A DNA stretch of 32,659 bases from the UHGV virus genome UHGV-0188647. One strand, written 5' to 3'. A program made the position numbers and the translations under genes. The notes beneath the pieces are model-generated. The model was not told the origin of the DNA. It saw only the letters and a program-made list of their open reading frames with translations, and searched no databases. Of this stretch, positions 15,002 to 32,659 are shown piece by piece. This DNA comes from a virus. Position 1 is the first letter of the stretch; each line of letters starts with the position of its first letter.

Positions 15002-16768
15002 ATGAACACCACACTGACACCCGCAGATCTCGATCCCCGTCGGCAGGCCATGCTGCTGTACTTTCAGGGATACCGCGTAGCCCGCATTGCTGAAATGCTG
15101 GGCGAGAAAGTTGCAACCGTTCACAGCTGGAAAAAACGCGACAAGTGGGGTGACTATGGGCCGCTGGATCAGATGCAGCTCACCACCGCCGCACGCTACT
15201 GCCAGCTCATTATGAAGGAGCACAAAGAAGGGAAAGATTTCAAAGAGATTGACCTGCTGGCGCGCCAGTCGGAGCGCCACGCGCGGATCGGCAAGTTTAA
15301 CAATGGCGGCAACGAATCCGACTTAAACCCTAACGTCGCCAACCGCAACAAAGGCCCGCGCCGTCAGCCGGAAAAGAATGTTTTCACCGATGAGCAGATT
15401 GAGAAGCTGGAAGAAATCTTCCATTCCTCCATGTTCAACTACCAGCGCCACTGGTGGGAAGCCGGAAAAACCAACCGCATCCGCAACCTGCTGAAGTCAC
15501 GCCAGATCGGCGCGACCTTTTACTTTGCCCGTGAAGCCCTGATTGACGCTCTGCTTACCGGACGTAACCAGATTTTTCTTTCCGCCAGCAAGGCACAGGC
15601 TCACGTCTTTAAGCAGTACATCATAGACTTCGCCAAAGAAGTCGAGGTGGAGCTGAAAGGCGATCCGATGGTGCTTCCTAACGGAGCCACGCTTTACTTC
15701 CTCGGCACCAATGCCCGCACGGCCCAGAGTTACCACGGCAACCTGTATCTGGATGAATATTTCTGGATACCGAAATTCCAGGAGCTGCGCAAAGTGGCTT
15801 CTGGTATGGCTATTCACAAAAAATGGCGACAAACCTATTTTTCCACGCCATCCAGCCTGACACACAGTGCTTATCCGTTCTGGTCCGGTGCGCTGTTCAA
15901 CCGTGGGCGCAATAAAGCCGATAAGGTGGACATCGACCTGTCCCACAGCAATCTGGCCCCCGGCCTGCTGTGCGCAGACGGGCAATACCGCCAGATAGTC
16001 ACCGTGGAAGATGCAGTGCGCGGCGGATGTAACCTTTTCGACCTCGATCAGTTGCGCATGGAGTACAGCCCGGACGAATACCAGAACCTGCTGATGTGCG
16101 AGTTTGTGGACGATCTCGCGTCCGTGTTCCCGCTCAGCGAGCTGCAGGCGTGCATGGTGGACAGTTGGGAAGTCTGGACCGACTTTCATGCACTGGCCCT
16201 GCGCCCGTTTGGCTGGCGCGAAGTGTGGATCGGTTATGACCCGGCAAAAGGTACGCAAAACGGCGACAGCGCCGGGTGCGTGGTGGTGGCACCGCCAGCC
16301 GTGCCGGGCGGTAAGTTCCGCATTCTTGAGCGTCACCAGTGGCGCGGGATGGACTTCCGCGCCCAGGCTAACGCCATCAAAAAACTGACTGAACAGTACA
16401 ACGTGACATACATCGGTATCGACTCAACCGGCGTCGGTCACGGGGTTTACGAGAACGTGAAAGCGTTTTTTCCTGCCGTCCGGGAGTTTGTCTACAACCC
16501 CAACGTTAAAAACGCCCTGGTACTCAAGGCCTACGACATTATTAGCCACCGCCGCCTGGAGTTTGACGCCGGGCACACCGACATAGCGCAGTCCTTTATG
16601 GCAATCCGTCGCGCCACCACTGCCAGCGGCAACCGCCCGACCTATGAGGCCAGCCGCAGCGAAGAAGCCAGCCACGCCGATCTGGCCTGGGCAACAATGC
16701 ACGCACTGTTTAACGAACCGCTGCAGGGCGAGTCCGCCAATACCAGCAATATTGTGGAGATTTTTTGA
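15002..16768 (+). CDS. P: terminase large (ATPase) subunit (P2 gpP-like)
   Basis: 588-aa ORF (P2 P is about 590 aa), divergent from O, followed by the portal gene with an ATGA overlap. Confidence 0.9.
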   Translation: MNTTLTPADLDPRRQAMLLYFQGYRVARIAEMLGEKVATVHSWKKRDKWGDYGPLDQMQLTTAARYCQLIMKEHKEGKDFKEIDLLARQSERHARIGKFNNGGNESDLNPNVANRNKGPRRQPEKNVFTDEQIEKLEEIFHSSMFNYQRHWWEAGKTNRIRNLLKSRQIGATFYFAREALIDALLTGRNQIFLSASKAQAHVFKQYIIDFAKEVEVELKGDPMVLPNGATLYFLGTNARTAQSYHGNLYLDEYFWIPKFQELRKVASGMAIHKKWRQTYFSTPSSLTHSAYPFWSGALFNRGRNKADKVDIDLSHSNLAPGLLCADGQYRQIVTVEDAVRGGCNLFDLDQLRMEYSPDEYQNLLMCEFVDDLASVFPLSELQACMVDSWEVWTDFHALALRPFGWREVWIGYDPAKGTQNGDSAGCVVVAPPAVPGGKFRILERHQWRGMDFRAQANAIKKLTEQYNVTYIGIDSTGVGHGVYENVKAFFPAVREFVYNPNVKNALVLKAYDIISHRRLEFDAGHTDIAQSFMAIRRATTASGNRPTYEASRSEEASHADLAWATMHALFNEPLQGESANTSNIVEIF

Positions 16769-17793
16769 TGGGAAAGAGTAAGAAAAACCGCGCTGCGGCG
16801 ACGAATCAGCTCAAGCATAAAAGCCAAACTTCAGCCGAAGCATTCAGCTTTGGCGATCCCGTTCCTGTTCTGGACCGCCGTGAACTGCTGGACTATGTGG
16901 AATGCGTACAGATGGACCGCTGGTATGAGCCGCCCGTCAGCTTTGACGGACTGGCACGAACCTTCCGCGCCGCCGTGCATCACAGCTCACCAATTGCGGT
17001 GAAATGCAACATTCTGACCAGTACCTACATCCCTCACCCGCTGCTCAGCCAGCAGGCTTTTTCACGTTTTGTGCAGGACTATCTGGTATTTGGTAACGCC
17101 TACCTGGAGAAACGCACGAACCGCTTCGGTGAAGTTATCGCCCTTGAGCCTGCTCTGGCAAAATACACCCGACGCGGGTTAGACCTGGATACCTACTGGT
17201 TTGTGCAATACGGTATGACAACCCAGCCGTATCAGTTCACGAAAGGCAGCATTTTTCATCTGATGGAACCGGACATCAACCAGGAGATCTACGGCCTGCC
17301 AGGTTATCTTTCTGCCATTCCATCAGCCCTGCTCAACGAGTCCGCCACGCTGTTCCGCCGCAAGTATTACATTAACGGCAGTCATGCAGGCTTCATCATG
17401 TACATGACCGATGCCGCGCAGAACCAGGAGGATGTGAACAACCTCCGCAATGCGATGAAAAGCGCCAAAGGCCCTGGCAACTTCCGCAACCTGTTTATGT
17501 ACTCGCCTAACGGCAAAAAGGACGGGCTTCAGATCATCCCGTTGTCAGAAGTCGCGGCGAAGGATGAGTTTCTGAGTATCAAAAATGTCAGCCGCGATGA
17601 CATGATGGCAGCGCATCGTGTGCCGCCGCAAATGATGGGGATTATGCCGAATAATGTTGGGGGGTTTGGGGATGTGGAGAAGGCAAGCCGTGTGTTTGTT
17701 CGTAACGAACTAATACCATTGCAAAAAAGATTGGATGAGTTAAATAATTGGTTAGACGATAAAATAATAACATTTAACACATACAATTTTTAA
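16765..17793 (+). CDS. Q: portal protein (P2 gpQ-like); last ~25 codons unusually AT-rich
   Basis: 342-aa ORF (P2 Q is about 344 aa) after the terminase gene, oriented toward cos; the C-terminal tail ...LDELNNWLDDKIITFNTYNF is encoded by AT-rich DNA unlike the rest of the gene. Confidence 0.85.
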   Translation: MMGKSKKNRAAATNQLKHKSQTSAEAFSFGDPVPVLDRRELLDYVECVQMDRWYEPPVSFDGLARTFRAAVHHSSPIAVKCNILTSTYIPHPLLSQQAFSRFVQDYLVFGNAYLEKRTNRFGEVIALEPALAKYTRRGLDLDTYWFVQYGMTTQPYQFTKGSIFHLMEPDINQEIYGLPGYLSAIPSALLNESATLFRRKYYINGSHAGFIMYMTDAAQNQEDVNNLRNAMKSAKGPGNFRNLFMYSPNGKKDGLQIIPLSEVAAKDEFLSIKNVSRDDMMAAHRVPPQMMGIMPNNVGGFGDVEKASRVFVRNELIPLQKRLDELNNWLDDKIITFNTYNF

Positions 17794-17798
17794 AGCAA

Positions 17799-17818
17799 GC
17801 CCTCAATCGAGGGCTTTT
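17799..17818. terminator. hairpin terminator between the convergent portal gene and cargo operon
   Basis: gccctc-aatc-gagggc stem-loop followed by tttt on the plus strand; A-rich on the other side. Confidence 0.5.
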
Positions 17819-17823
17819 GAAAA

Positions 17824-18345
17824 TCAGTTAATCAGTTTATTTAATGACTTAGACCACTTCTGTCCCAAATCATCAATATCAAAATCACCATCTCGCTGCT
17901 GCCATTTAAAAACTAAGGCTATAAGTTCACTCTTGAGGATTCTTTTATAATAATCCTTAGATTTTAATTGCTCAAGTATATGTTCACCAACCTCAGCAAG
18001 CTTTCTATGATTTAATTCTGACAGATCTCGATGCAAATGGTTAACTGATTTATACAAAGTATTTCCTTCAGTACGAGAAATATCAATACCTTTATCTTCA
18101 AACCATTGTGAATCAAGCCAAACCAAATCTATCGTAGCTGGCTCTGACATCGTGGTGGCAAGGGCAACAATAATTTTCTCTACCGATTCATCTTGAAAAT
18201 CGATAGAGTCAGAAACCCAAACTGACAAGGTGTTATTAGAGGTCCTTGTGCAACCTGTTATCGCGTCTGCGGATATATTGTCAGGTGCTCTACCTTTATT
18301 ACATTCCCATTTACTATGGGATATTTTACGCAATAAATATGTCAT
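17824..18345 (-). CDS. hypothetical protein, cargo operon gene 3 (173 aa)
   Basis: AT-rich ORF; its ATG overlaps the upstream gene's stop as TAATG (18343-18347); no family recognised; has an R-x6-H pair (RDLSELNH). Confidence 0.6.
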   Translation of the reverse strand: MTYLLRKISHSKWECNKGRAPDNISADAITGCTRTSNNTLSVWVSDSIDFQDESVEKIIVALATTMSEPATIDLVWLDSQWFEDKGIDISRTEGNTLYKSVNHLHRDLSELNHRKLAEVGEHILEQLKSKDYYKRILKSELIALVFKWQQRDGDFDIDDLGQKWSKSLNKLIN

Positions 18346-18992
18346 TATAGACTTCTCAAATATCCTATAACTGCTTCTTTATATTCTTCCACCCAATCAG
18401 CATCAAATTTCCTCATTCTTTCAAGGACTGGAATAAATGATTTTTCCCCCCAAGACTCAACTGCACGGATCGCTGCCTCAAATATAAGTTCATTCTCAAG
18501 AGAACAAACTCCCATAATCATAGCGTCAGCTTTATTACCTAACCATTCATATTCAATAGTCGATGCAAAATTAATGAAGTTCTTTACATGTTGATCATTC
18601 ATTCTGTACAATTGTACCCATGTCCTTTGAAAGGACTCTTGGAATAAATCCTGATTTTTATCATACAAGAACTCCATGTAAATCTGTGTCTTGCTTATCT
18701 CGCCTTCAATGTAATCTTCTGAACATGTTAACTCAATTAGTCTAGAGGTACATTTTGAAACCTGAATTTCAAAGTTCTGCTTAGTTGACGAACCTTGATT
18801 TATTGACTCAGTCTCTAATTGAAAGCCACCATTTGTTTTGCTATGTGACAGCTCATTTCTTTTAATATCAGCGTAAATGATATTGTTACCATCATAATAA
18901 TCAGAAAATGCACCTATTGAACTTACCCCATTTTTAAACTTAGGTAAGCCAAAAGGCTTTTCATCACTTATTATAAAACTATTCTTTACCAT
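18345..18992 (-). CDS. hypothetical protein, cargo operon gene 2 (215 aa)
   Basis: AT-rich ORF 9 bp after gene 1, with an AAGGTGA RBS; no family recognised. Confidence 0.6.
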   Translation of the reverse strand: MVKNSFIISDEKPFGLPKFKNGVSSIGAFSDYYDGNNIIYADIKRNELSHSKTNGGFQLETESINQGSSTKQNFEIQVSKCTSRLIELTCSEDYIEGEISKTQIYMEFLYDKNQDLFQESFQRTWVQLYRMNDQHVKNFINFASTIEYEWLGNKADAMIMGVCSLENELIFEAAIRAVESWGEKSFIPVLERMRKFDADWVEEYKEAVIGYLRSL

Positions 18993-19001
18993 AGCATCAC
19001 C

Positions 19002-19697
19002 TTACAGAGAAGTGTAGCGTTGTAAATTATCAATAGTTTTAAGATTGTCCTGACACAATAACTCTAGCACGCGGATATATTCATCCCAACCAAACCGCAT
19101 ATATCCATTTTGAGGAAGAGTATTAGTATCAGTTTCAAATAATACGCAATCACTTGGCATACCATTATTCAAAAATGGAGCTGAAATTTCAGCGCGTCTA
19201 ATTGTACTAATACTATTAATTTCTTCCTGATACTCTTCAATATTTTTCCTTACAGCTATACGATTGTCCCACTCAAATGGATTAACACCTTTATAGGTAA
19301 ACAAAGCATTGTAAAGCGAAGAGTAAACAGATTCATCCCCTTGATAGATACGTGAATTCAGAACAGCTATCCTATTTCCTTTTTTCATCGGAAATACGTT
19401 TTGTAGTTCCCTAGATATAGATAGAACCATTTCTGAAAACGCTTGAGGTTCCCCCCCCAAACCATTAAAAATGATTCCATGGCTAGGAAACTCGACTCTT
19501 ACTGTTTGATTGGTATCTACCATGATAAGAATTTGCTTTTTCTCACCAGTGATGGCATTAATCTCCTGACCAAAAGTAGGTACAAATCCAAATTTTCCAA
19601 TCTTATCAAGCATAGATCCAATAGTTAGTGTATTTGGAACTATATCATTATTATTTGTGAAAAAATTAATCTGATGCGTCTGTTCAATCAATTTCAT
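19002..19697 (-). CDS. hypothetical protein, cargo operon gene 1 (231 aa)
   Basis: AT-rich ORF with an AAGGAG RBS 5 nt upstream of the ATG; first gene downstream of the cos-like site; no family recognised. Confidence 0.6.
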   Translation of the reverse strand: MKLIEQTHQINFFTNNNDIVPNTLTIGSMLDKIGKFGFVPTFGQEINAITGEKKQILIMVDTNQTVRVEFPSHGIIFNGLGGEPQAFSEMVLSISRELQNVFPMKKGNRIAVLNSRIYQGDESVYSSLYNALFTYKGVNPFEWDNRIAVRKNIEEYQEEINSISTIRRAEISAPFLNNGMPSDCVLFETDTNTLPQNGYMRFGWDEYIRVLELLCQDNLKTIDNLQRYTSL

Positions 19698-19844
19698 AAT
19701 TGCTCCTTGTTCAAAAAAACACCACCGCTCAGTGGTTCCTCTCTGTTAAAATATTCTAGTTCAACTTACTCTCAATATGAATCAAAGCTTAACCCTGGTT
19801 GGTAATTAAGTCACACTTTTCTTCATAGTAAGGGATTTCGCGCG

Positions 19845-19863
19845 CTCGTATCCCCGCCACGCC
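19845..19863 (-). other. cos-like cohesive-end site (186/P2 type)
   Basis: The minus strand reads ggcgtggcggggatacgag, matching 15 of 19 positions of the 186 cohesive end GGCGTGGCGGGGAAAGCAT as I recall it; it lies between the right-end operon terminator and the portal side, in the expected orientation. Confidence 0.4.
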
Positions 19864-19904
19864 TGCCCGCTTTATGTAGTGGTTTTCATGCACCTGCATG
19901 AGCT

Positions 19905-19932
19905 ACGCAAAAGCCCGCCAGTTCTGGCGGGC
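19905..19932 (-). terminator. rho-independent terminator after the SOS-controlled two-gene operon
   Basis: 7-bp GC stem (gcccgcc...ggcgggc) followed by a TTTT tract on the minus strand. Confidence 0.5.
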
Positions 19933-20067
19933 CTTAGCAAAAACGATCCTCAAACGATCATGCGATCTCATGCGGCATAGACATGCACTACAGAGCTAAC
20001 GCCTCGCAAGGGCTCGTTGTTCAACCTTGCTGACGCCAGAAGCAAGTTCAGACGCCAGCAACGTTTC

Positions 20068-20653: not shown

Positions 20654-23068
20654 TTAATACAGGTTCCGCCACTGATCATCTTCCTGCAAACGCTGGCTCC
20701 GATAGAAGATACGCAGGCCTGCTCCTGACGGAATACTGCCTCCGCGAAGGAGTAAATCGACCTCTTTCTCGCTGCCATCAAATCCTCTGGACTTCAGCTC
20801 ATACACGAGCTGCAGTCGCTGATGGTCTGTAATTCGCTGTTTGTAGTCTTTACGCCGTTTCGGTTTCACCAGGCATAACCTTGCTGCCAGTTCCCGGCGC
20901 TCTTTTTTGCTCATACTGTGCAGGTAATCGTGCAACTCCTTGTCATCCATGCTGGTAATGTCCGTTCTGGGGTCCCCATCAGCTGATTTATCTTTCTCCT
21001 GTTGGTTCAAATTTTCAGCAAGGGGACAGTTATTGCCACGAGTCCAAGGGGCGCAAGCGCCCTGGTCGGCTGCCGCCTCCTGAACGTCAACGGCCTTACG
21101 AACCATTTTCCACTTCACTGCATGAGTGCAGATCTTGCCCTCTGCAATGGGTGACCAGATGCCATAAATACGAATGCCGTGATCGCCATAGGCGGTCGGC
21201 TCTTCGTTGATTTCATAAGCGGTTCTGATGAGGTGATATTTGCGGGGAACCAGTACGCCGCCCTGCTTCATGATGTAGGTGGCAAAACAACCAGCATCAG
21301 CAGCAGCCAGAATGGCATCAAGACGCGGGTTATCCAGTACCGGCGCACCTGCTTTTTTGTCACCCTGTTGCCTTGCCGCCTGACCAGCCAGCAAGCGAAG
21401 TTCACGGTAAGCCTGACGTCCCGGAATACCAAAGAAGCGGAATTGCTGTACACGATGCAGAGACGCCCAGGCATTAACGTATTCAGCGTTATCACGCAGG
21501 GATTTACCCGTTTCCTTGCTGATCTCGCCAGCCAGACCACGCCCGTCAATGTTCTTACTGATGTATTTCGCGATGTAGCTTGTCGGCGTTCCTTTGCGCG
21601 GGTTTATCAGCTCAGATTTAAAGCGTGGACCAGTGTTATTACCCAGTTCCTCGCGGTCTTCACGGATGGCAAACTTACGCAACAATGCAGTAATGGCGCG
21701 GCGGTCTTTTTTGCGCATGAAACACAACAGGTGCCAGTGAACTGTACCGTCATGATGCGGCTCAGCCACCCGCACGCCATACCAGCGCAACCCGGCTTTG
21801 TGCATCGCCTTACGAAATGCAGCAAACATGCCGACCAGATAATCGCTGCTTTGTCTTACCGTCGCATTTGTCCAGGTTGGGTTTGGTCTGCCGTTATTGA
21901 GCGTGGAATGGAAACGTGACGGACAGGTAATGGTGTAGAAAACGGCGCAGTCACCGCGCATTTCCGCGATAAGCTCCAGACCTTTAACACAGGCCATCAT
22001 CTCATTGCGGCGGTGCGCCGGGTTGCTGCTGCTGGCGTTTACCACGTCTTCCATATCCAGCGTGTCGCCCTCTTCGTTCACCAGTTCATGAGAACGGAAA
22101 AACTCCAGTGACTTGCGGCGCTGCTCACGTTTATGAATCACGGCTTCATAGCTGACATAGGGAGATGCTTTTTTGCTGACCAGGCAGACAGCACGCAACT
22201 GCTCTTCCCGCCATTCGCAACGCATTTTCCATAATTTCCGGTACCACCAGTCGGCACACAACATACGCGCCAGCGAACCCGGAATGAGTTCATAGGGCAC
22301 GGGTTGACGGCGGTTTCTTTTCCGACGGAGTTGCTCAAACGCAGGCGGAATAACATCCAGACGCAGGGTTTCCGCTGCCACCTTTTCCCATGTTTTGCGG
22401 ATTTCTTCTGGCTTAACGTCATCGGTGGCGTACAAATCACCACAAGCGGCATCAAGACACATGCTCATATGCGCAGCGACAAGAGTAGACAGGCGTTTCA
22501 CCTGATCCTGACTCATTTCAGGCAGAATCAGCAGGCCGTCCAGCCCTACATGGCTTGCCATAAAACGAAAAGATGCAGATAGCTGGCTGTCGCGTACATG
22601 CTCCAGTCGCTCCAGACATGGCTTAATCGTCTCACGCAAATAGCGGGAATAAGCCTTTGGCCTGCCCAGGCTGCTGAAGTATTCAATACGTTGCATCAGC
22701 GGCTTGCTGATATGGGAAGGCTGGGCATTGACGTCCGCCAGAATGACCATATCTGGATTAAAACGCTGCTGCTCATGCGCCAGCTTTGCCCGACTAATGA
22801 GCTTATCCTGCTCCATTTCGCGCTGGACAGGATCACGGGATTCATTAAAGAAATAACGCTCCCAGACCTGATCACTCAGTGCCTCGCGGCGCAGGTGTTC
22901 CTGCTCGTTATCGGCAGCGTACAGAGCGATCAGGTTTGAAAGCGCAGAAACCGGCGCAACTTCCGCCGGGTCCAGATAAGGGTTAATGGCCTTTTTCGGG
23001 CTGTTCCATGAGAACGCTGCGGCAGCCTCGTTAAAGCCGCAGCAGTTGTTCATATCGGCATGGCTCAT
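20654..23068 (-). CDS. A: replication initiation endonuclease (P2 gpA-like, rolling-circle initiator)
   Basis: 804-aa ORF with an HxH-type motif (TVHWHLL) and a tyrosine pair motif [10 protein letters not shown] (Y-x-x-K-Y); its position matches P2/186 gene A. Confidence 0.85.
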
Positions 23069-26497: not shown

Positions 26498-27520
26498 ATG
26501 ACCATCAGAAAACAGCCGAACGGAAAATGGTTGTGTGAGTGCTATCCCAATGGACGCAATGGCAAGCGCGTGCGTAAGCAATTTGCCACGAAAGGCGAAG
26601 CCATTGCGTTTGAAAGCTTCACAATGGAAGAAGTGAATAAAAAACCGTGGTTGGGTGAAAAGGATGATCGGCGACGCCTATCAGAATTAATTGAGCTTTG
26701 GTATTCCCTATATGGTCAAACACTCGCAGACCCCAAGCGCCTCATGGCGAAACTTAGAATTATCTGTAATGGTCTAGGCGATCCCATCGCCTCAGAACTG
26801 ACAGCTGGTGACTTTACAAAATACCGCGAAGCACGGTTAAAAGGTGAAATACGAAATGAAGATGGCACGCTTATGTCGCCCGTTAAGCCCCGCACGGTAA
26901 ACCTTGAACAGCGCAATCTATCATCTGTGTTCGGTACATTAAAAAAACTAGGACACTGGTCAGCACCAAACCCGCTGGCAGGACTTCCGACCTTCAAAAT
27001 TGCCGAAGGTGAGCTGGCTTTTCTTTCCACGGACGAAATCAAGCGCCTGTTGGCGGCATGTGCTGAATCTCAAAGCCCTAGCTTACTAATGATTGCAAAA
27101 ATATGCCTAGCTACTGGCGCACGGTGGAGTGAAGCCGAAAATCTGCAGGGCCATCAAATATCGAAATACCGAATTACTTATACAAAAACAAAAGGCAAGA
27201 AAAACCGTACTGTGCCGATATCTCAGGATCTGTATGATGAACTCCCCAAAAACAGAGGGAAGCTATTCACTCCATGTAGAAAAGCCTTTGAGCGGGCGGT
27301 TAAACGCGCGGGTATTGAGCTGCCAGAAGGCCAATGCACCCATGTACTGCGCCACACATTCGCCAGTCACTTCATGATGAATGGCGGAAACATACTCGTT
27401 TTGAGGGATATTTTAGGGCATTCAGATATTAAGATGACTATGGTTTATGCCCATTTTTCACCAGAGCATCTTGAAGATGCAGTAACTAAAAACCCACTAT
27501 TTAATTTAAATATTATATGA
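26498..27520 (+). CDS. int: tyrosine integrase (P2/186 family)
   Basis: C-terminal catalytic region HVLRHTFASH...LGHSDIKMTMVYAH (R, H-x-x-R and Y signature); 340 aa. Confidence 0.9.
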   Translation: MTIRKQPNGKWLCECYPNGRNGKRVRKQFATKGEAIAFESFTMEEVNKKPWLGEKDDRRRLSELIELWYSLYGQTLADPKRLMAKLRIICNGLGDPIASELTAGDFTKYREARLKGEIRNEDGTLMSPVKPRTVNLEQRNLSSVFGTLKKLGHWSAPNPLAGLPTFKIAEGELAFLSTDEIKRLLAACAESQSPSLLMIAKICLATGARWSEAENLQGHQISKYRITYTKTKGKKNRTVPISQDLYDELPKNRGKLFTPCRKAFERAVKRAGIELPEGQCTHVLRHTFASHFMMNGGNILVLRDILGHSDIKMTMVYAHFSPEHLEDAVTKNPLFNLNII

Positions 27521-28578
27521 ACATTAATACTAGCTTTACTGGAATTATTGTGTATATTTTGGCAATTATTCTTTTTGCGTTTGTATCAATATATAAAAAG
27601 TGGTACATTCTCGATAAAAGAAATTTATTTCAACAGAAATTATTTTGGATTTCAATTGCAGTACCACTGCTGTCATTCATTTATTTTGGAGCATTTGCAT
27701 GGTTTGGTAAAATACCTGTTCTTTCTGCTCACGGATATGCCAGATTCTATGAGATAAGCAAATTCCCATTATTGATACTCGCAAGTTCTGTACCATTAGC
27801 TTCCATAGTAAATAACATTCACAGAACGATACAAACCGAAGCACAAATTAATTCATCTGAAATCAAAAATGCAATCGATAGACATTTTGCTCATGAGAAA
27901 AATTTCGTAGATAAAATTAAAGAAATATCAAGCTTTACGATGCAAAGCTTTGTAGATGACGCATCAAAATATTATAATTACAATGATAGCAACAAAATTA
28001 AAATACTAACAACTCATGAAATTAAAATCTCAAACCCATACTTATTATATTCCAATATATATACAGAATCGTCAATGGATATCACATCCAATTATTCACC
28101 AGACGAGAACTTTAAAAAAAGCATATTGTCAATCCTAGATACCATTAATAATAACTTATCAAAAGATAAGGTTACACCCCATTCAAATGCAGAAGATTAC
28201 CTTACCAGATTAAATACAATTTCATATAACATAGCTAAATTATTAGATACTTTATGCGTAGATTGTATCTCGATAGCCTATATAGAGTTAAAAATCAACG
28301 GCACTAAAATAAGAACGTTCACCCCTACAGAATCAATGTTAGCCGAATCACTTGAGGCTGCATTTTATCTATCTAAAAAGATATTAAAACTAGCTTACGG
28401 ATTTCAGCTTCAAAACTACAGTAATATATATAACTACTTGTACATTGGTGAAATTAAATTTGATACAGAACAATTTTCTAAATTTTTGCAACCATTCTAT
28501 TCTCCTGAATGGTCAGCATACGTAATGGAGAAACCGGTGACAGTTGATGATGGCGGCACTTTGGCGGCAGAGGATTAA
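27517..28578 (+). CDS. hypothetical membrane protein (353 aa), AT-rich moron translationally coupled to int
   Basis: ATGA start/stop overlap with int; 2-3 N-terminal transmembrane helices followed by about 250 aa of soluble N/K/I/Y-rich sequence; no family recognised. Confidence 0.6.
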   Translation: MNINTSFTGIIVYILAIILFAFVSIYKKWYILDKRNLFQQKLFWISIAVPLLSFIYFGAFAWFGKIPVLSAHGYARFYEISKFPLLILASSVPLASIVNNIHRTIQTEAQINSSEIKNAIDRHFAHEKNFVDKIKEISSFTMQSFVDDASKYYNYNDSNKIKILTTHEIKISNPYLLYSNIYTESSMDITSNYSPDENFKKSILSILDTINNNLSKDKVTPHSNAEDYLTRLNTISYNIAKLLDTLCVDCISIAYIELKINGTKIRTFTPTESMLAESLEAAFYLSKKILKLAYGFQLQNYSNIYNYLYIGEIKFDTEQFSKFLQPFYSPEWSAYVMEKPVTVDDGGTLAAED

Positions 28579-30264: not shown

Positions 30265-30293
30265 ATTTATTCTAATTTTGGTTTTGAATCTTT

Positions 30294-32597
30294 CTATTTT
30301 AAATCAGCCTTTGCGGCTCGAATATCTGCGTTTTTTGCTGAGTATTCCCATTCGTCAGCGATTCTAAATAGCATTGCAGAAGTACGGACGCAGTGGGGCA
30401 TTGAATTTGCCCATTCTCGGTACTGCTCAGCTAATATCCTTTCTTGGTTTCCACCTTCGTAACGCATACGAGCAAATACCCCCCTTTTATTGTACCTACC
30501 AATTTGTATACCTTGCTCTAACTCATCAGAAGATAATATTTCAATGATGTGCCGAATTGCTTCATGTGGCCAGGAATTATCTACTGAGCTATTAGGGGCA
30601 TGTGCCAGAATTTTTCCTATTACATGATCAGTGATTTCTTGGCGATGATGCAATTTTGCTAAATGGCGTACATTCTCACACCAATCTTCAAGTTTATCTT
30701 GATCAATTTCATTGTCTATCTGCCCTGGTAGTATTCGTAATTTTTCAAGTAATCTGTATATAGAAGTAGCTCTTTTAACTTCCAACTCCGATGGTTCTGT
30801 TTGTTCATCTTCGTCACTACGATATACAATACATATTGCTTCTATAAAAACCTCTGGCTTTTTCATCATTAGACGATGCAGGATAAGTGGCTCATCGCTA
30901 TCCGGAAAACAAGGCAAGTAGGTCATTTCTTTAAATGCCAAATCTGTTTCAGAAACATCGTTACGTTGTTTGAGTTCATCAAAAACTTTTTTTACATAGT
31001 ACGATAGCATTGTATCAAATTGGATATCCTGGCTATTTATTTCTTTAACGACTATATCTAGAAGATATAAAAGTGTTGTAGATGGAATCTCAGAAAGGCG
31101 TTGATTTGCTGATATAATAGCAGCAAGACCCCGGCCCCTTTCTATATATTTATCCATAAGAACAAATAAATCCGAAGTTTTACCCATCATTGCAATGGGT
31201 TGTTTTTGCAACCAATATTTTTCGTTGATGTTATCTTCAAACCCTTCAATAATGCTCCATATCTCTTGTGAGTCTCTTAACGATGCTAAGATTTTCCCAG
31301 CCCTATCAGGGGTAATTTTAAACTGTTTAAAATACACTTTTATTTTATTAAGCCATTCAGCACCAAAGCATTCAACACCATATTGCATTAACAACCCACA
31401 AACTTCATCAATATTTTTTTTGTTGTTAATAAGCATTACAAACAAATCATTTAATTTTTCTTCATCCAACGAGAGTGCTGATATATGCCTTGCTGCAATA
31501 AAAACATTATTAACTTGTTGAAAAAGGTCTTTCACCCCAGACAAACCTAAAGTAAAGTATATTTCCCTAAGTTTTTCACTTCGCATTTCTTCGACAGAAG
31601 AAAAAATTCCGCCAGCATTTTCAATTGACTCTTCAATATCAGAATCCCAATCATTGAAAATCCATAAACTGGCTCTAACCATGTCAATTGGTTTATAATT
31701 ATCAAGTATTTTCGCTATTTTTTCCATAGACTCAAATTTAAATGCCCAGTTCGCATCTGAATATTTTTTATGGCGAGAATACTCATGACGCAAAGCCTCC
31801 CATACGATGAACTGATCCTCTTCAGTTTGTTGAGAAAGGCAAAGTTCAAGATGAGAAAGTGTTTCATCTATTGCATTCTCAGGGAATGAGCTTAAATGAG
31901 AGATTAGGATTTCCCATCTTGTTGGGAGTATACCTGCAAGTTTAATTGCTTCTTGGATAATAAAGATTTGCCCCTCCCAAACAACGCCCCACGTTAGTTT
32001 TTCTACATCTTTATCCGACTCTCTGAACTTCATTTTTTGGTTTTGATCAGAGGTATCATGGGAGCGAGGAAGGAGATTTTGTAACAAACTCCACCCAATA
32101 CTAGGAACAATAGTGATAATTTTTTTTATAATTGCATTTCTAACTTTTACTGGTGCCCATGTATTAGGAGACCATGCCAGAAAAATGGTTCTTAAACTAT
32201 TAAGAGGGCGATCTGAGTAAGTTCCTCCGGGATCTATTACAGCGAGTTTTGCAAGACAGATTGCAGCGCGTAATAGATATGTTTGTTCCCAAGCCAAGGC
32301 TTCCAATGCCCATTTTAATCCATGATAATGACTTCGAGGAGTTAACAGCCCTTTATCTTCATTGAATATTGGAGCAATCATTTCCCCATTGCCCTTAAGC
32401 AATTGCTCAAGGGCATCAAGGAAAGGGCCAGGGGCAGCTTCTGCCAGCAGCGGAAGTTGATCTCGCAAACTAACAAATAGTCGATGGTCGTTAGCAAGTC
32501 CCGGAATACTCTGAACTATTTTGTTAACAAAATCTTGGGGTGTCATACCAGTAACCCGGAATTCGGCCTGTTCATGTAATATGATCTTACCCAGCAA
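30294..32597 (-). CDS. large hypothetical protein (767 aa), AT-rich island cargo
   Basis: Long uninterrupted AT-rich ORF convergent with the P4-type integrase; no Walker A or other motif recognised; the start may be the Met at 32597 or the internal Met at residue 17. Confidence 0.6.
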   Translation of the reverse strand: MLGKIILHEQAEFRVTGMTPQDFVNKIVQSIPGLANDHRLFVSLRDQLPLLAEAAPGPFLDALEQLLKGNGEMIAPIFNEDKGLLTPRSHYHGLKWALEALAWEQTYLLRAAICLAKLAVIDPGGTYSDRPLNSLRTIFLAWSPNTWAPVKVRNAIIKKIITIVPSIGWSLLQNLLPRSHDTSDQNQKMKFRESDKDVEKLTWGVVWEGQIFIIQEAIKLAGILPTRWEILISHLSSFPENAIDETLSHLELCLSQQTEEDQFIVWEALRHEYSRHKKYSDANWAFKFESMEKIAKILDNYKPIDMVRASLWIFNDWDSDIEESIENAGGIFSSVEEMRSEKLREIYFTLGLSGVKDLFQQVNNVFIAARHISALSLDEEKLNDLFVMLINNKKNIDEVCGLLMQYGVECFGAEWLNKIKVYFKQFKITPDRAGKILASLRDSQEIWSIIEGFEDNINEKYWLQKQPIAMMGKTSDLFVLMDKYIERGRGLAAIISANQRLSEIPSTTLLYLLDIVVKEINSQDIQFDTMLSYYVKKVFDELKQRNDVSETDLAFKEMTYLPCFPDSDEPLILHRLMMKKPEVFIEAICIVYRSDEDEQTEPSELEVKRATSIYRLLEKLRILPGQIDNEIDQDKLEDWCENVRHLAKLHHRQEITDHVIGKILAHAPNSSVDNSWPHEAIRHIIEILSSDELEQGIQIGRYNKRGVFARMRYEGGNQERILAEQYREWANSMPHCVRTSAMLFRIADEWEYSAKNADIRAAKADLK

Positions 32598-32659
32598 TAG
32601 TGGACACGCGGCTAAGTGAGTAAACTCTCAGTCAGAGGTGACTCACATGACAAAAACAG

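Follow-up and report, generated by a model that had tools for sequence, protein, structure and literature searches.

A mobile, AT-rich three-gene cassette in the cos-side defence hotspot of a P2-like prophage as a candidate conflict module

We analysed a window of 32,659 nt (the whole of the stretch designated UHGV-0188647) in which three minus-strand open reading frames, g1, g2, and g3, lie between the portal gene and cos. The element that hosts this cassette is a P2-like prophage. The features of the locus are as follows.

15002–16768, plus strand: terminase gene
16765–17793, plus strand: portal gene, converging on the cassette
17719–17793, plus strand: 3′ end of the portal gene, AT-rich (GC 0.21), with the left recombination junction inside it
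17799–17818, no strand assigned: hairpin GCCCTC-AATC-GAGGGC plus TTTT, where the portal gene and g3 converge
18345–17824, minus strand: g3, 173 aa (WP_000221711)
18992–18345, minus strand: g2, 215 aa (WP_000240425)
19697–19002, minus strand: g1, 231 aa (RefSeq WP_032235580)
19703–19708, minus strand: AAGGAG ribosome-binding site of g1, 5 nt before its ATG
19721–19736, minus strand: hairpin ACCACTGAGCGGTGGT followed by seven T, in the leader ~12 nt upstream of the g1 ribosome-binding site
19781–19748, minus strand: promoter-like hexamers in the leader, from a sequence scan
19698–19835, minus strand: cassette-specific leader, part of the swapped cargo, with the right junction at ~19836
19846–19863, minus strand: cos core GGCGTGGCGGGGATACGA, the conserved boundary of the cargo on the replication-gene side
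20654–23068, minus strand: gpA replication endonuclease gene, beyond cos, with a DinI-like gene

An earlier, sequence-only reading had described a three-gene operon in which 9 bp separate g1 from g2, g2 and g3 overlap in a TAATG stop/start, and g1 has an AAGGAG ribosome-binding site; its coordinates and layout proved exact. The AT-richness that it had noticed was likewise confirmed, with a GC content of 0.34–0.37 over 17.6–19.6 kb compared to 0.52–0.60 in the flanking phage genes. RefSeq labels each of the three products a hypothetical protein. All three are real genes, and many genera share them as a block at identities that range from 96% to ~30%. Automated calls on the cassette are often shortened, to 128 aa for g1, 85 aa for g2, and 133–134 aa for g3; the 128-aa g1 call sits on 186 collection blocks, and locus L028 4001–5565 carries one mismatch in 2,201 nt. 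Pseudogenisation of the commonest E. coli form was considered and rejected, as its DNA is 99.95% identical and its ORFs are intact. Since the DNA is intact, the shortened ORFs are gene-calling artefacts, and such under-calling of AT-rich cargo can distort hotspot catalogues.

The GC-rich hairpin at 17799–17818 is likely a bidirectional terminator. The leader hairpin with its T-run may be an insulating terminator or an attenuator; a conserved attenuator was rejected, because other copies of the cassette do not conserve it. At the cos end, a RefSeq 'hypothetical protein' pseudogene with an internal stop (19789–19971, minus strand) is annotated across the cos core; this annotation is probably not a gene.

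Comparison with related prophages located the ends of the cargo. We ran megablast on 5,426 complete E. coli genomes: ~1,280 records share 65 bp at cos, but the complete cassette is present in only four genomes, all of them livestock isolates (pig ETEC and cattle). Across ~1,250 related prophages, similarity stops at ~17684–17789 and restarts at ~19836, with the left junction falling within the last ~5–35 codons of the portal gene. An insertion junction reaching into the portal 3′ end had been suspected from the AT-richness of its final codons, and the composition agrees, with a GC content of 0.21 in the last 75 nt versus ~0.5 upstream. Every examined prophage with portal-side cargo has an AT-rich portal tail of its own (GC 0.23–0.31, versus 0.52 in P2), and the sequences of these last ~25 codons differ among such prophages (including those at loci L004, L009, L015, and L016). 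The prophage-specific tails suggest that the hotspot swap unit of this lineage includes the C-terminal ~20 residues of the portal protein, which seem to be exchanged along with the cargo.

Experiments support the gpA–gpQ interval beside cos as a defence hotspot (Rousset et al. 2022, PMC9122126), and 4 of the 21 new systems of Vassallo et al. 2022 mapped to this position. Its cargo is not always defensive: ~25% of P2-like phages carry partition systems there, and ~2% carry cytolethal distending toxin. The cassette lies between gpA and gpQ, beside cos, in an interval that is variable among related prophages, and its cos variant GGCGTGGCGGGGATACGA is identical in the P2-hotspot clone pFR109 of Rousset et al. 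Whether the Q-to-cos interval is a variable hotspot had been raised beforehand as a check; other prophages indeed carry a TIGR02391 protein or a KAP P-loop NTPase in the same slot, and the ~1,250 prophages that share the flanks lack the cassette. These comparisons support the view that the cassette is horizontally acquired cargo in the P2 gpA–gpQ/cos defence hotspot.

A second AT-rich stretch lies elsewhere in the window, between the prophage integrase gene (26751–27767, plus strand) and a disrupted ypjA. It contains a gene that RefSeq annotates as an 'anti-phage dCTP deaminase' (WP_000660070.1; 28147–29880, minus strand). By this annotation, a second cargo site of the element is occupied by a recognised defence gene. 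The ypjA/ehaD autotransporter gene (30748–32659) is annotated as incomplete, disrupted beside the prophage and the deaminase island, and a separate β-barrel fragment (30276–30602) is annotated next to it.

The proposal that the cassette was undescribed holds in part. In Table S5B of Rousset et al. 2022 (PMC9122126) it appears as system #83, at 43 of 18,150 loci, but with no Pfam match, no annotation, and no test. That entry shows two proteins only, one of which is the 133-aa form of g3. The g1 RefSeq protein and its exact sequence are present in the supplementary tables of the same study, and the g1, g2, and g3 sequences were not found in its tables of tested systems. Literature searches by accession number returned no paper, and in a 2026 survey of P2 and P4 elements the new candidates tested came from P4 only. 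We likewise found no mention in the literature of the wide distribution on plasmids and in chromosomal islets, or of the large g3 superfamily, described below.

Word-indexed searches recovered 53 clusters of g3, 22 of g1, and 6 of g2. Conservation follows the order g3 > g1 > g2, with g2 the fastest-diverging component. An exhaustive profile search extended the g3 superfamily to at least 1,855 unannotated representatives at 50% identity, 852 of them with E ≤ 1e-10; the best 150 of the 1,855 are mostly 160–200 aa long. The g1-g2-g3 order, with overlapping or tight spacing, recurs in all settings found save Limihaloglobus, in which only a g2–g3 pair was detected. P2-like prophages of Klebsiella pneumoniae (whose g3 variant is indexed in 154 blocks of the collection) and of a metagenomic host carry the block at the same portal–cos slot, and Erwinia carries it within a decayed P2 remnant. 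Phage-free chromosomal copies occur in Acinetobacter baumannii, Microbulbifer, Amphritea, Kushneria, Oceanisphaera, and Thalassomonas, and a Vibrio copy lies on an integrase-bearing island. Even where g3 identity is ~30%, in Pseudoalteromonas and a MAG, hmmsearch confirmed the homology of g1 and g2.

All three genes were also confirmed on three small plasmids. The cassette is the sole cargo of two ColE1-type plasmids, of 4.4 kb (Klebsiella) and 5.0 kb (Enterobacter), and is present on a 7.5-kb MOBQ plasmid of Acinetobacter. All copies are AT-rich relative to their own replicon or host, and g1 was not found in any of 50,697 deposited phage genomes. The cassette is an autonomous, conserved, and horizontally mobile three-gene block.

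The chromosomal copies are flanked mostly by housekeeping genes (recF–gyrB twice), with an occasional RelE, transposase, integrase, or LeoA/LeoBC-like pair, and the defence-island signal outside phages is therefore weak. In Amphritea and Kushneria (L018 and L019), the cassette is directly beside gyrB and a RecF-like gene, a flank that may be a recurrent chromosomal insertion site. In Vibrio alginolyticus (L012 6678–12543), it adjoins an operon of an integrase with 582-aa and 681-aa proteins that have no Pfam match, and two small unknown genes are found there too. The layout of this island resembles that of Gamma-Mobile-Trio (GMT) islands; the GAPS systems of GMT islands were considered as counterparts of the cassette and set aside, since validated GAPS have one or two genes.

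We searched the three proteins against collections of known families. None matched any of the 5,027 models of PADLOC v2.0.0 at E ≤ 1, and PADLOC applied to 82 superfamily members, distant ones included, gave scattered single chance matches only. Pfam and NCBIfam returned nothing near threshold for g1, g2, or g3; individual Pfam scans of family members showed no recurring signal; and family profiles of the three had no match among PDB sequences. The sequence-only reading had recognised no family in any of the proteins, and these searches bear it out. Each protein is a full-length member of a PHROG of unknown function.

The length of g1, 231 aa, is invariant among close relatives. It is predicted to fold into an antiparallel sheet of two lobes with helices, possibly similar to that of guanidino kinases, and a conserved polar cluster comprises R109, E142, W143, N161, R168, D190, N192, T193, and R201. 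The best fold matches of the predicted structure are guanidino kinases, glutamate–cysteine ligase, and class II aaRS cores. Two g1 motifs, FEWDNR and DTNT...R, which we took to be reminiscent of the kinase signatures NEEDHLR and CPTNLGT, were considered as such and dropped: against a verified B. subtilis McsB (its sequence checked against the PDB), hhalign gave a probability of 0.7%, and the register was non-catalytic.

The N-terminal ~70–90 aa of g2 are hypervariable in alignments, and its C-terminal ~130 aa form a conserved domain with the conserved residues G97, E98, K101, E107, E172, A173, E179, and W181. The gene is always directly upstream of g3.

The most conserved component of the cassette is g3, with the core residues R6, W13, D27, S41, W43, H105, and D107. 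Its predicted structure has an N-terminal alpha/beta domain and a helical C-terminal part. The invariant or near-invariant R6, S41, and H105-x-D107 lie on predicted β1, β2, and β5; compared with an R-S-E or H-Y-E catalytic triad, the third position has no Glu. The N-terminal domain shows weak ADP-ribosyltransferase (ART)-like fold matches, among them RES, ParT, MbcT, and DarT; Pfam scans (37 and 82 members) showed no recurrent ART family, and PDB profile searches had no match. An R-x6-H pair in g3 had been pointed out earlier as weakly HEPN-like. This did not survive comparison: among 82 superfamily members, only 35 have Arg at the position of R106, and position 114 varies. Assignment of g3 to HEPN was also rejected on its predicted fold, whose N-terminal half is alpha/beta, whereas HEPN is all-helical.

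The cassette sits in a hotspot, is rare among related prophages, is AT-rich in every host, keeps its three genes strictly coupled, and is the only cargo of some tiny plasmids. This combination suggests that it may be an autonomous conflict module, acting as an abortive-infection or toxin–antitoxin (TA)-like anti-phage system. As a compact, coupled, mobile, and plasmid-borne operon, it is TA-like in its organisation. We infer the defence role from context, rank this reading first, and give it an even chance. Several observations weigh against an anti-phage function: non-phage copies lie mostly among housekeeping genes and not in defence islands, the PADLOC models find no match, the P2 hotspot accepts non-defence cargo, and g1 is absent from the deposited phage genomes.

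A possible mechanism for such a conflict module would begin with expression driven from the cassette's own upstream region. The translationally coupled operon would supply the three proteins in fixed proportion, and they would form an inactive complex. Within this complex, g3 would be the effector, possibly NAD+-dependent, with a weakly ADP-ribosyltransferase-like predicted fold. The g2 protein would be the neutralising and specificity (sensor) subunit, presenting a hypervariable N-terminus on its conserved C-terminal domain. Finally, g1 would bind or process a phosphate-bearing ligand and gate activation, using its rigid guanidino-kinase-like sheet and invariant Arg/Glu/Asp/Asn cluster. These putative roles and chemistries are modelled on the conservation order g3 > g1 > g2 and on the weak fold leads; the g2–g3 pairing, the hypervariable g2 N-terminus, and the Limihaloglobus pair were counted as well. 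The confidently predicted structures and short lists of invariant residues make the hypothesis directly testable by mutagenesis. Retron Eco1 in BL21, an AT-rich cargo at the same hotspot, is silenced by H-NS, and native-promoter assays of the cassette may therefore give false negatives.

Among the alternatives, the one that survives best, though we consider it unlikely, is a tripartite module of the addiction (post-segregational killing) or TA type, which would stabilise its carrier and have no dedicated anti-phage function. Its small, tightly coupled, AT-rich genes, found as sole cargo on tiny ColE1-type plasmids and as solitary islets among housekeeping genes, would suit this role, as would the obligate g2–g3 pair with an antitoxin-like g2 directly upstream. 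The fold families weakly matched by g3 also cover many TA toxins (RES, ParT, MbcT, and DarT). However, in E. coli and Klebsiella the cassette strongly favours the P2 cos hotspot, which fits host-benefit cargo better, and plasmids of the high-copy ColE1 type gain little from stabilisation by killing. Addiction also overlaps with the conflict-module reading, as many TA modules defend against phage too.

An accessory role in metabolism, stress, or signalling, in which for instance a kinase-like enzyme and two partner proteins benefit the host in ways unconnected with phages or addiction, appears improbable. It would account for the best fold matches of g1, which are enzymes, for the enzyme-like invariant polar cluster of this protein, and for the housekeeping neighbours of many copies. 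Sporadic distribution, AT-richness, and carriage in prophage hotspots and on mobilisable plasmids are nonetheless typical of conflict systems, and no transporter, regulator, or pathway gene is consistently near the cassette.

We think it very improbable that the cassette serves counter-defence or competition between elements, aiding the prophage or plasmid against host immunity or rivals. Its presence on prophages and mobilisable plasmids would be in keeping with such a function, and P2-like phages occasionally carry anti-defence genes, but these occur in only 28 of 1,511 P2 elements. The marine chromosomal islets between housekeeping genes offer no obvious use for counter-defence, and none of the 50,697 phage genomes encodes g1.

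Conserved P2-family virion, packaging, or lysogeny functions, for which only the position beside the portal gene and cos speaks and which the sequence-only reading had named as the finding that would count against its proposal, are effectively refuted by the distribution: the cassette is missing from the ~1,250 related E. coli prophages with shared flanks, g1 from all of the deposited phage genomes, and copies lie on plasmids and at phage-free chromosomal sites.

The conflict-module reading can be taken a step further. The cassette may be the founding example of a widespread and hitherto unrecognised immune system of three components, in which a guanidino-kinase-like g1 and a hypervariable adaptor g2 control a new, highly divergent, NAD+-utilising (ART-like) g3, a possibility that we regard as doubtful. 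If functional, the cassette would represent a new widespread immune or TA family spread across prophage hotspots, tiny plasmids, and chromosomes, a family that the current tools PADLOC, Pfam, and NCBIfam miss completely.

We compared the cassette with described systems that share its layout, its location, or its predicted folds. The closest in layout and location is the 'hp + hp + hp' system (pFR109), validated against phage P1 (Rousset et al. 2022, PMC9122126), which likewise consists of three genes lacking predicted domains in the P2 hotspot with the same cos variant. Its proteins, of 333, 359, and 227 aa, are however unrelated to those of the cassette. Identity of the cassette with this system, which we take to be Rst_3HP in DefenseFinder, was rejected, as the best blastp score was 26 bits and family profiles scored about 0 bits against all three proteins.

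PD-T4-9 (Vassallo et al. 2022) is, like the cassette, a three-gene operon carried by E. coli mobile elements; it encodes a toxin of the ART type (exotoxin A-like), a middle protein of unknown nature, and an accessory third protein. The ART-like fold of g3 is a weak lead, and the fold matches listed for g1 are guanidino kinases and include no SecB chaperone. The PADLOC models of PD-T4-9, presumably the system later named CmdTAC, and of DarTG had no match in the cassette proteins.

The minimal ART-fold toxins (DarT, RES-Xre, ParT, and MbcT) and HopF/AvrPphF have no sequence-profile similarity to g3, and the structural comparison of ART-fold toxins with g3 gave a Foldseek TM of 0.38. The cassette also has none of the partners of the DarTG or RES-Xre type (macrodomain or Xre). 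Guanidino kinases, both phosphagen kinases and the McsB protein-arginine kinases, may be similar to g1, at the level of the predicted fold only: neither their signatures (NEEDH[IL]R and CPTN[LV]GT) nor Pfam ATP-gua_Ptrans matched g1, and a tentative alignment with McsB places the invariant residues of g1 off the catalytic Glu and Arg of the kinase.

In P2 itself, the closest counterparts are old and tin, which are, like the cassette, AT-rich accessory genes in a variable cos-side interval and dispensable for phage growth. The sequence-only reading had placed the cassette in the A-to-Q region where P2 carries these genes. That placement stands, but in P2 both genes are found between cos and gpA; the cassette is on the portal side, where it replaces the last ~20 codons of the portal gene; the proteins are also unrelated. 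The type of locus is known and the cassette is catalogued, and as judged by sequence comparison the cassette is unrelated to any described system. If the three-component immune reading is true, its pairing of a guanidino-kinase-like protein and a hypervariable adaptor with a divergent ART-like effector would be a combination present in no described defence system.
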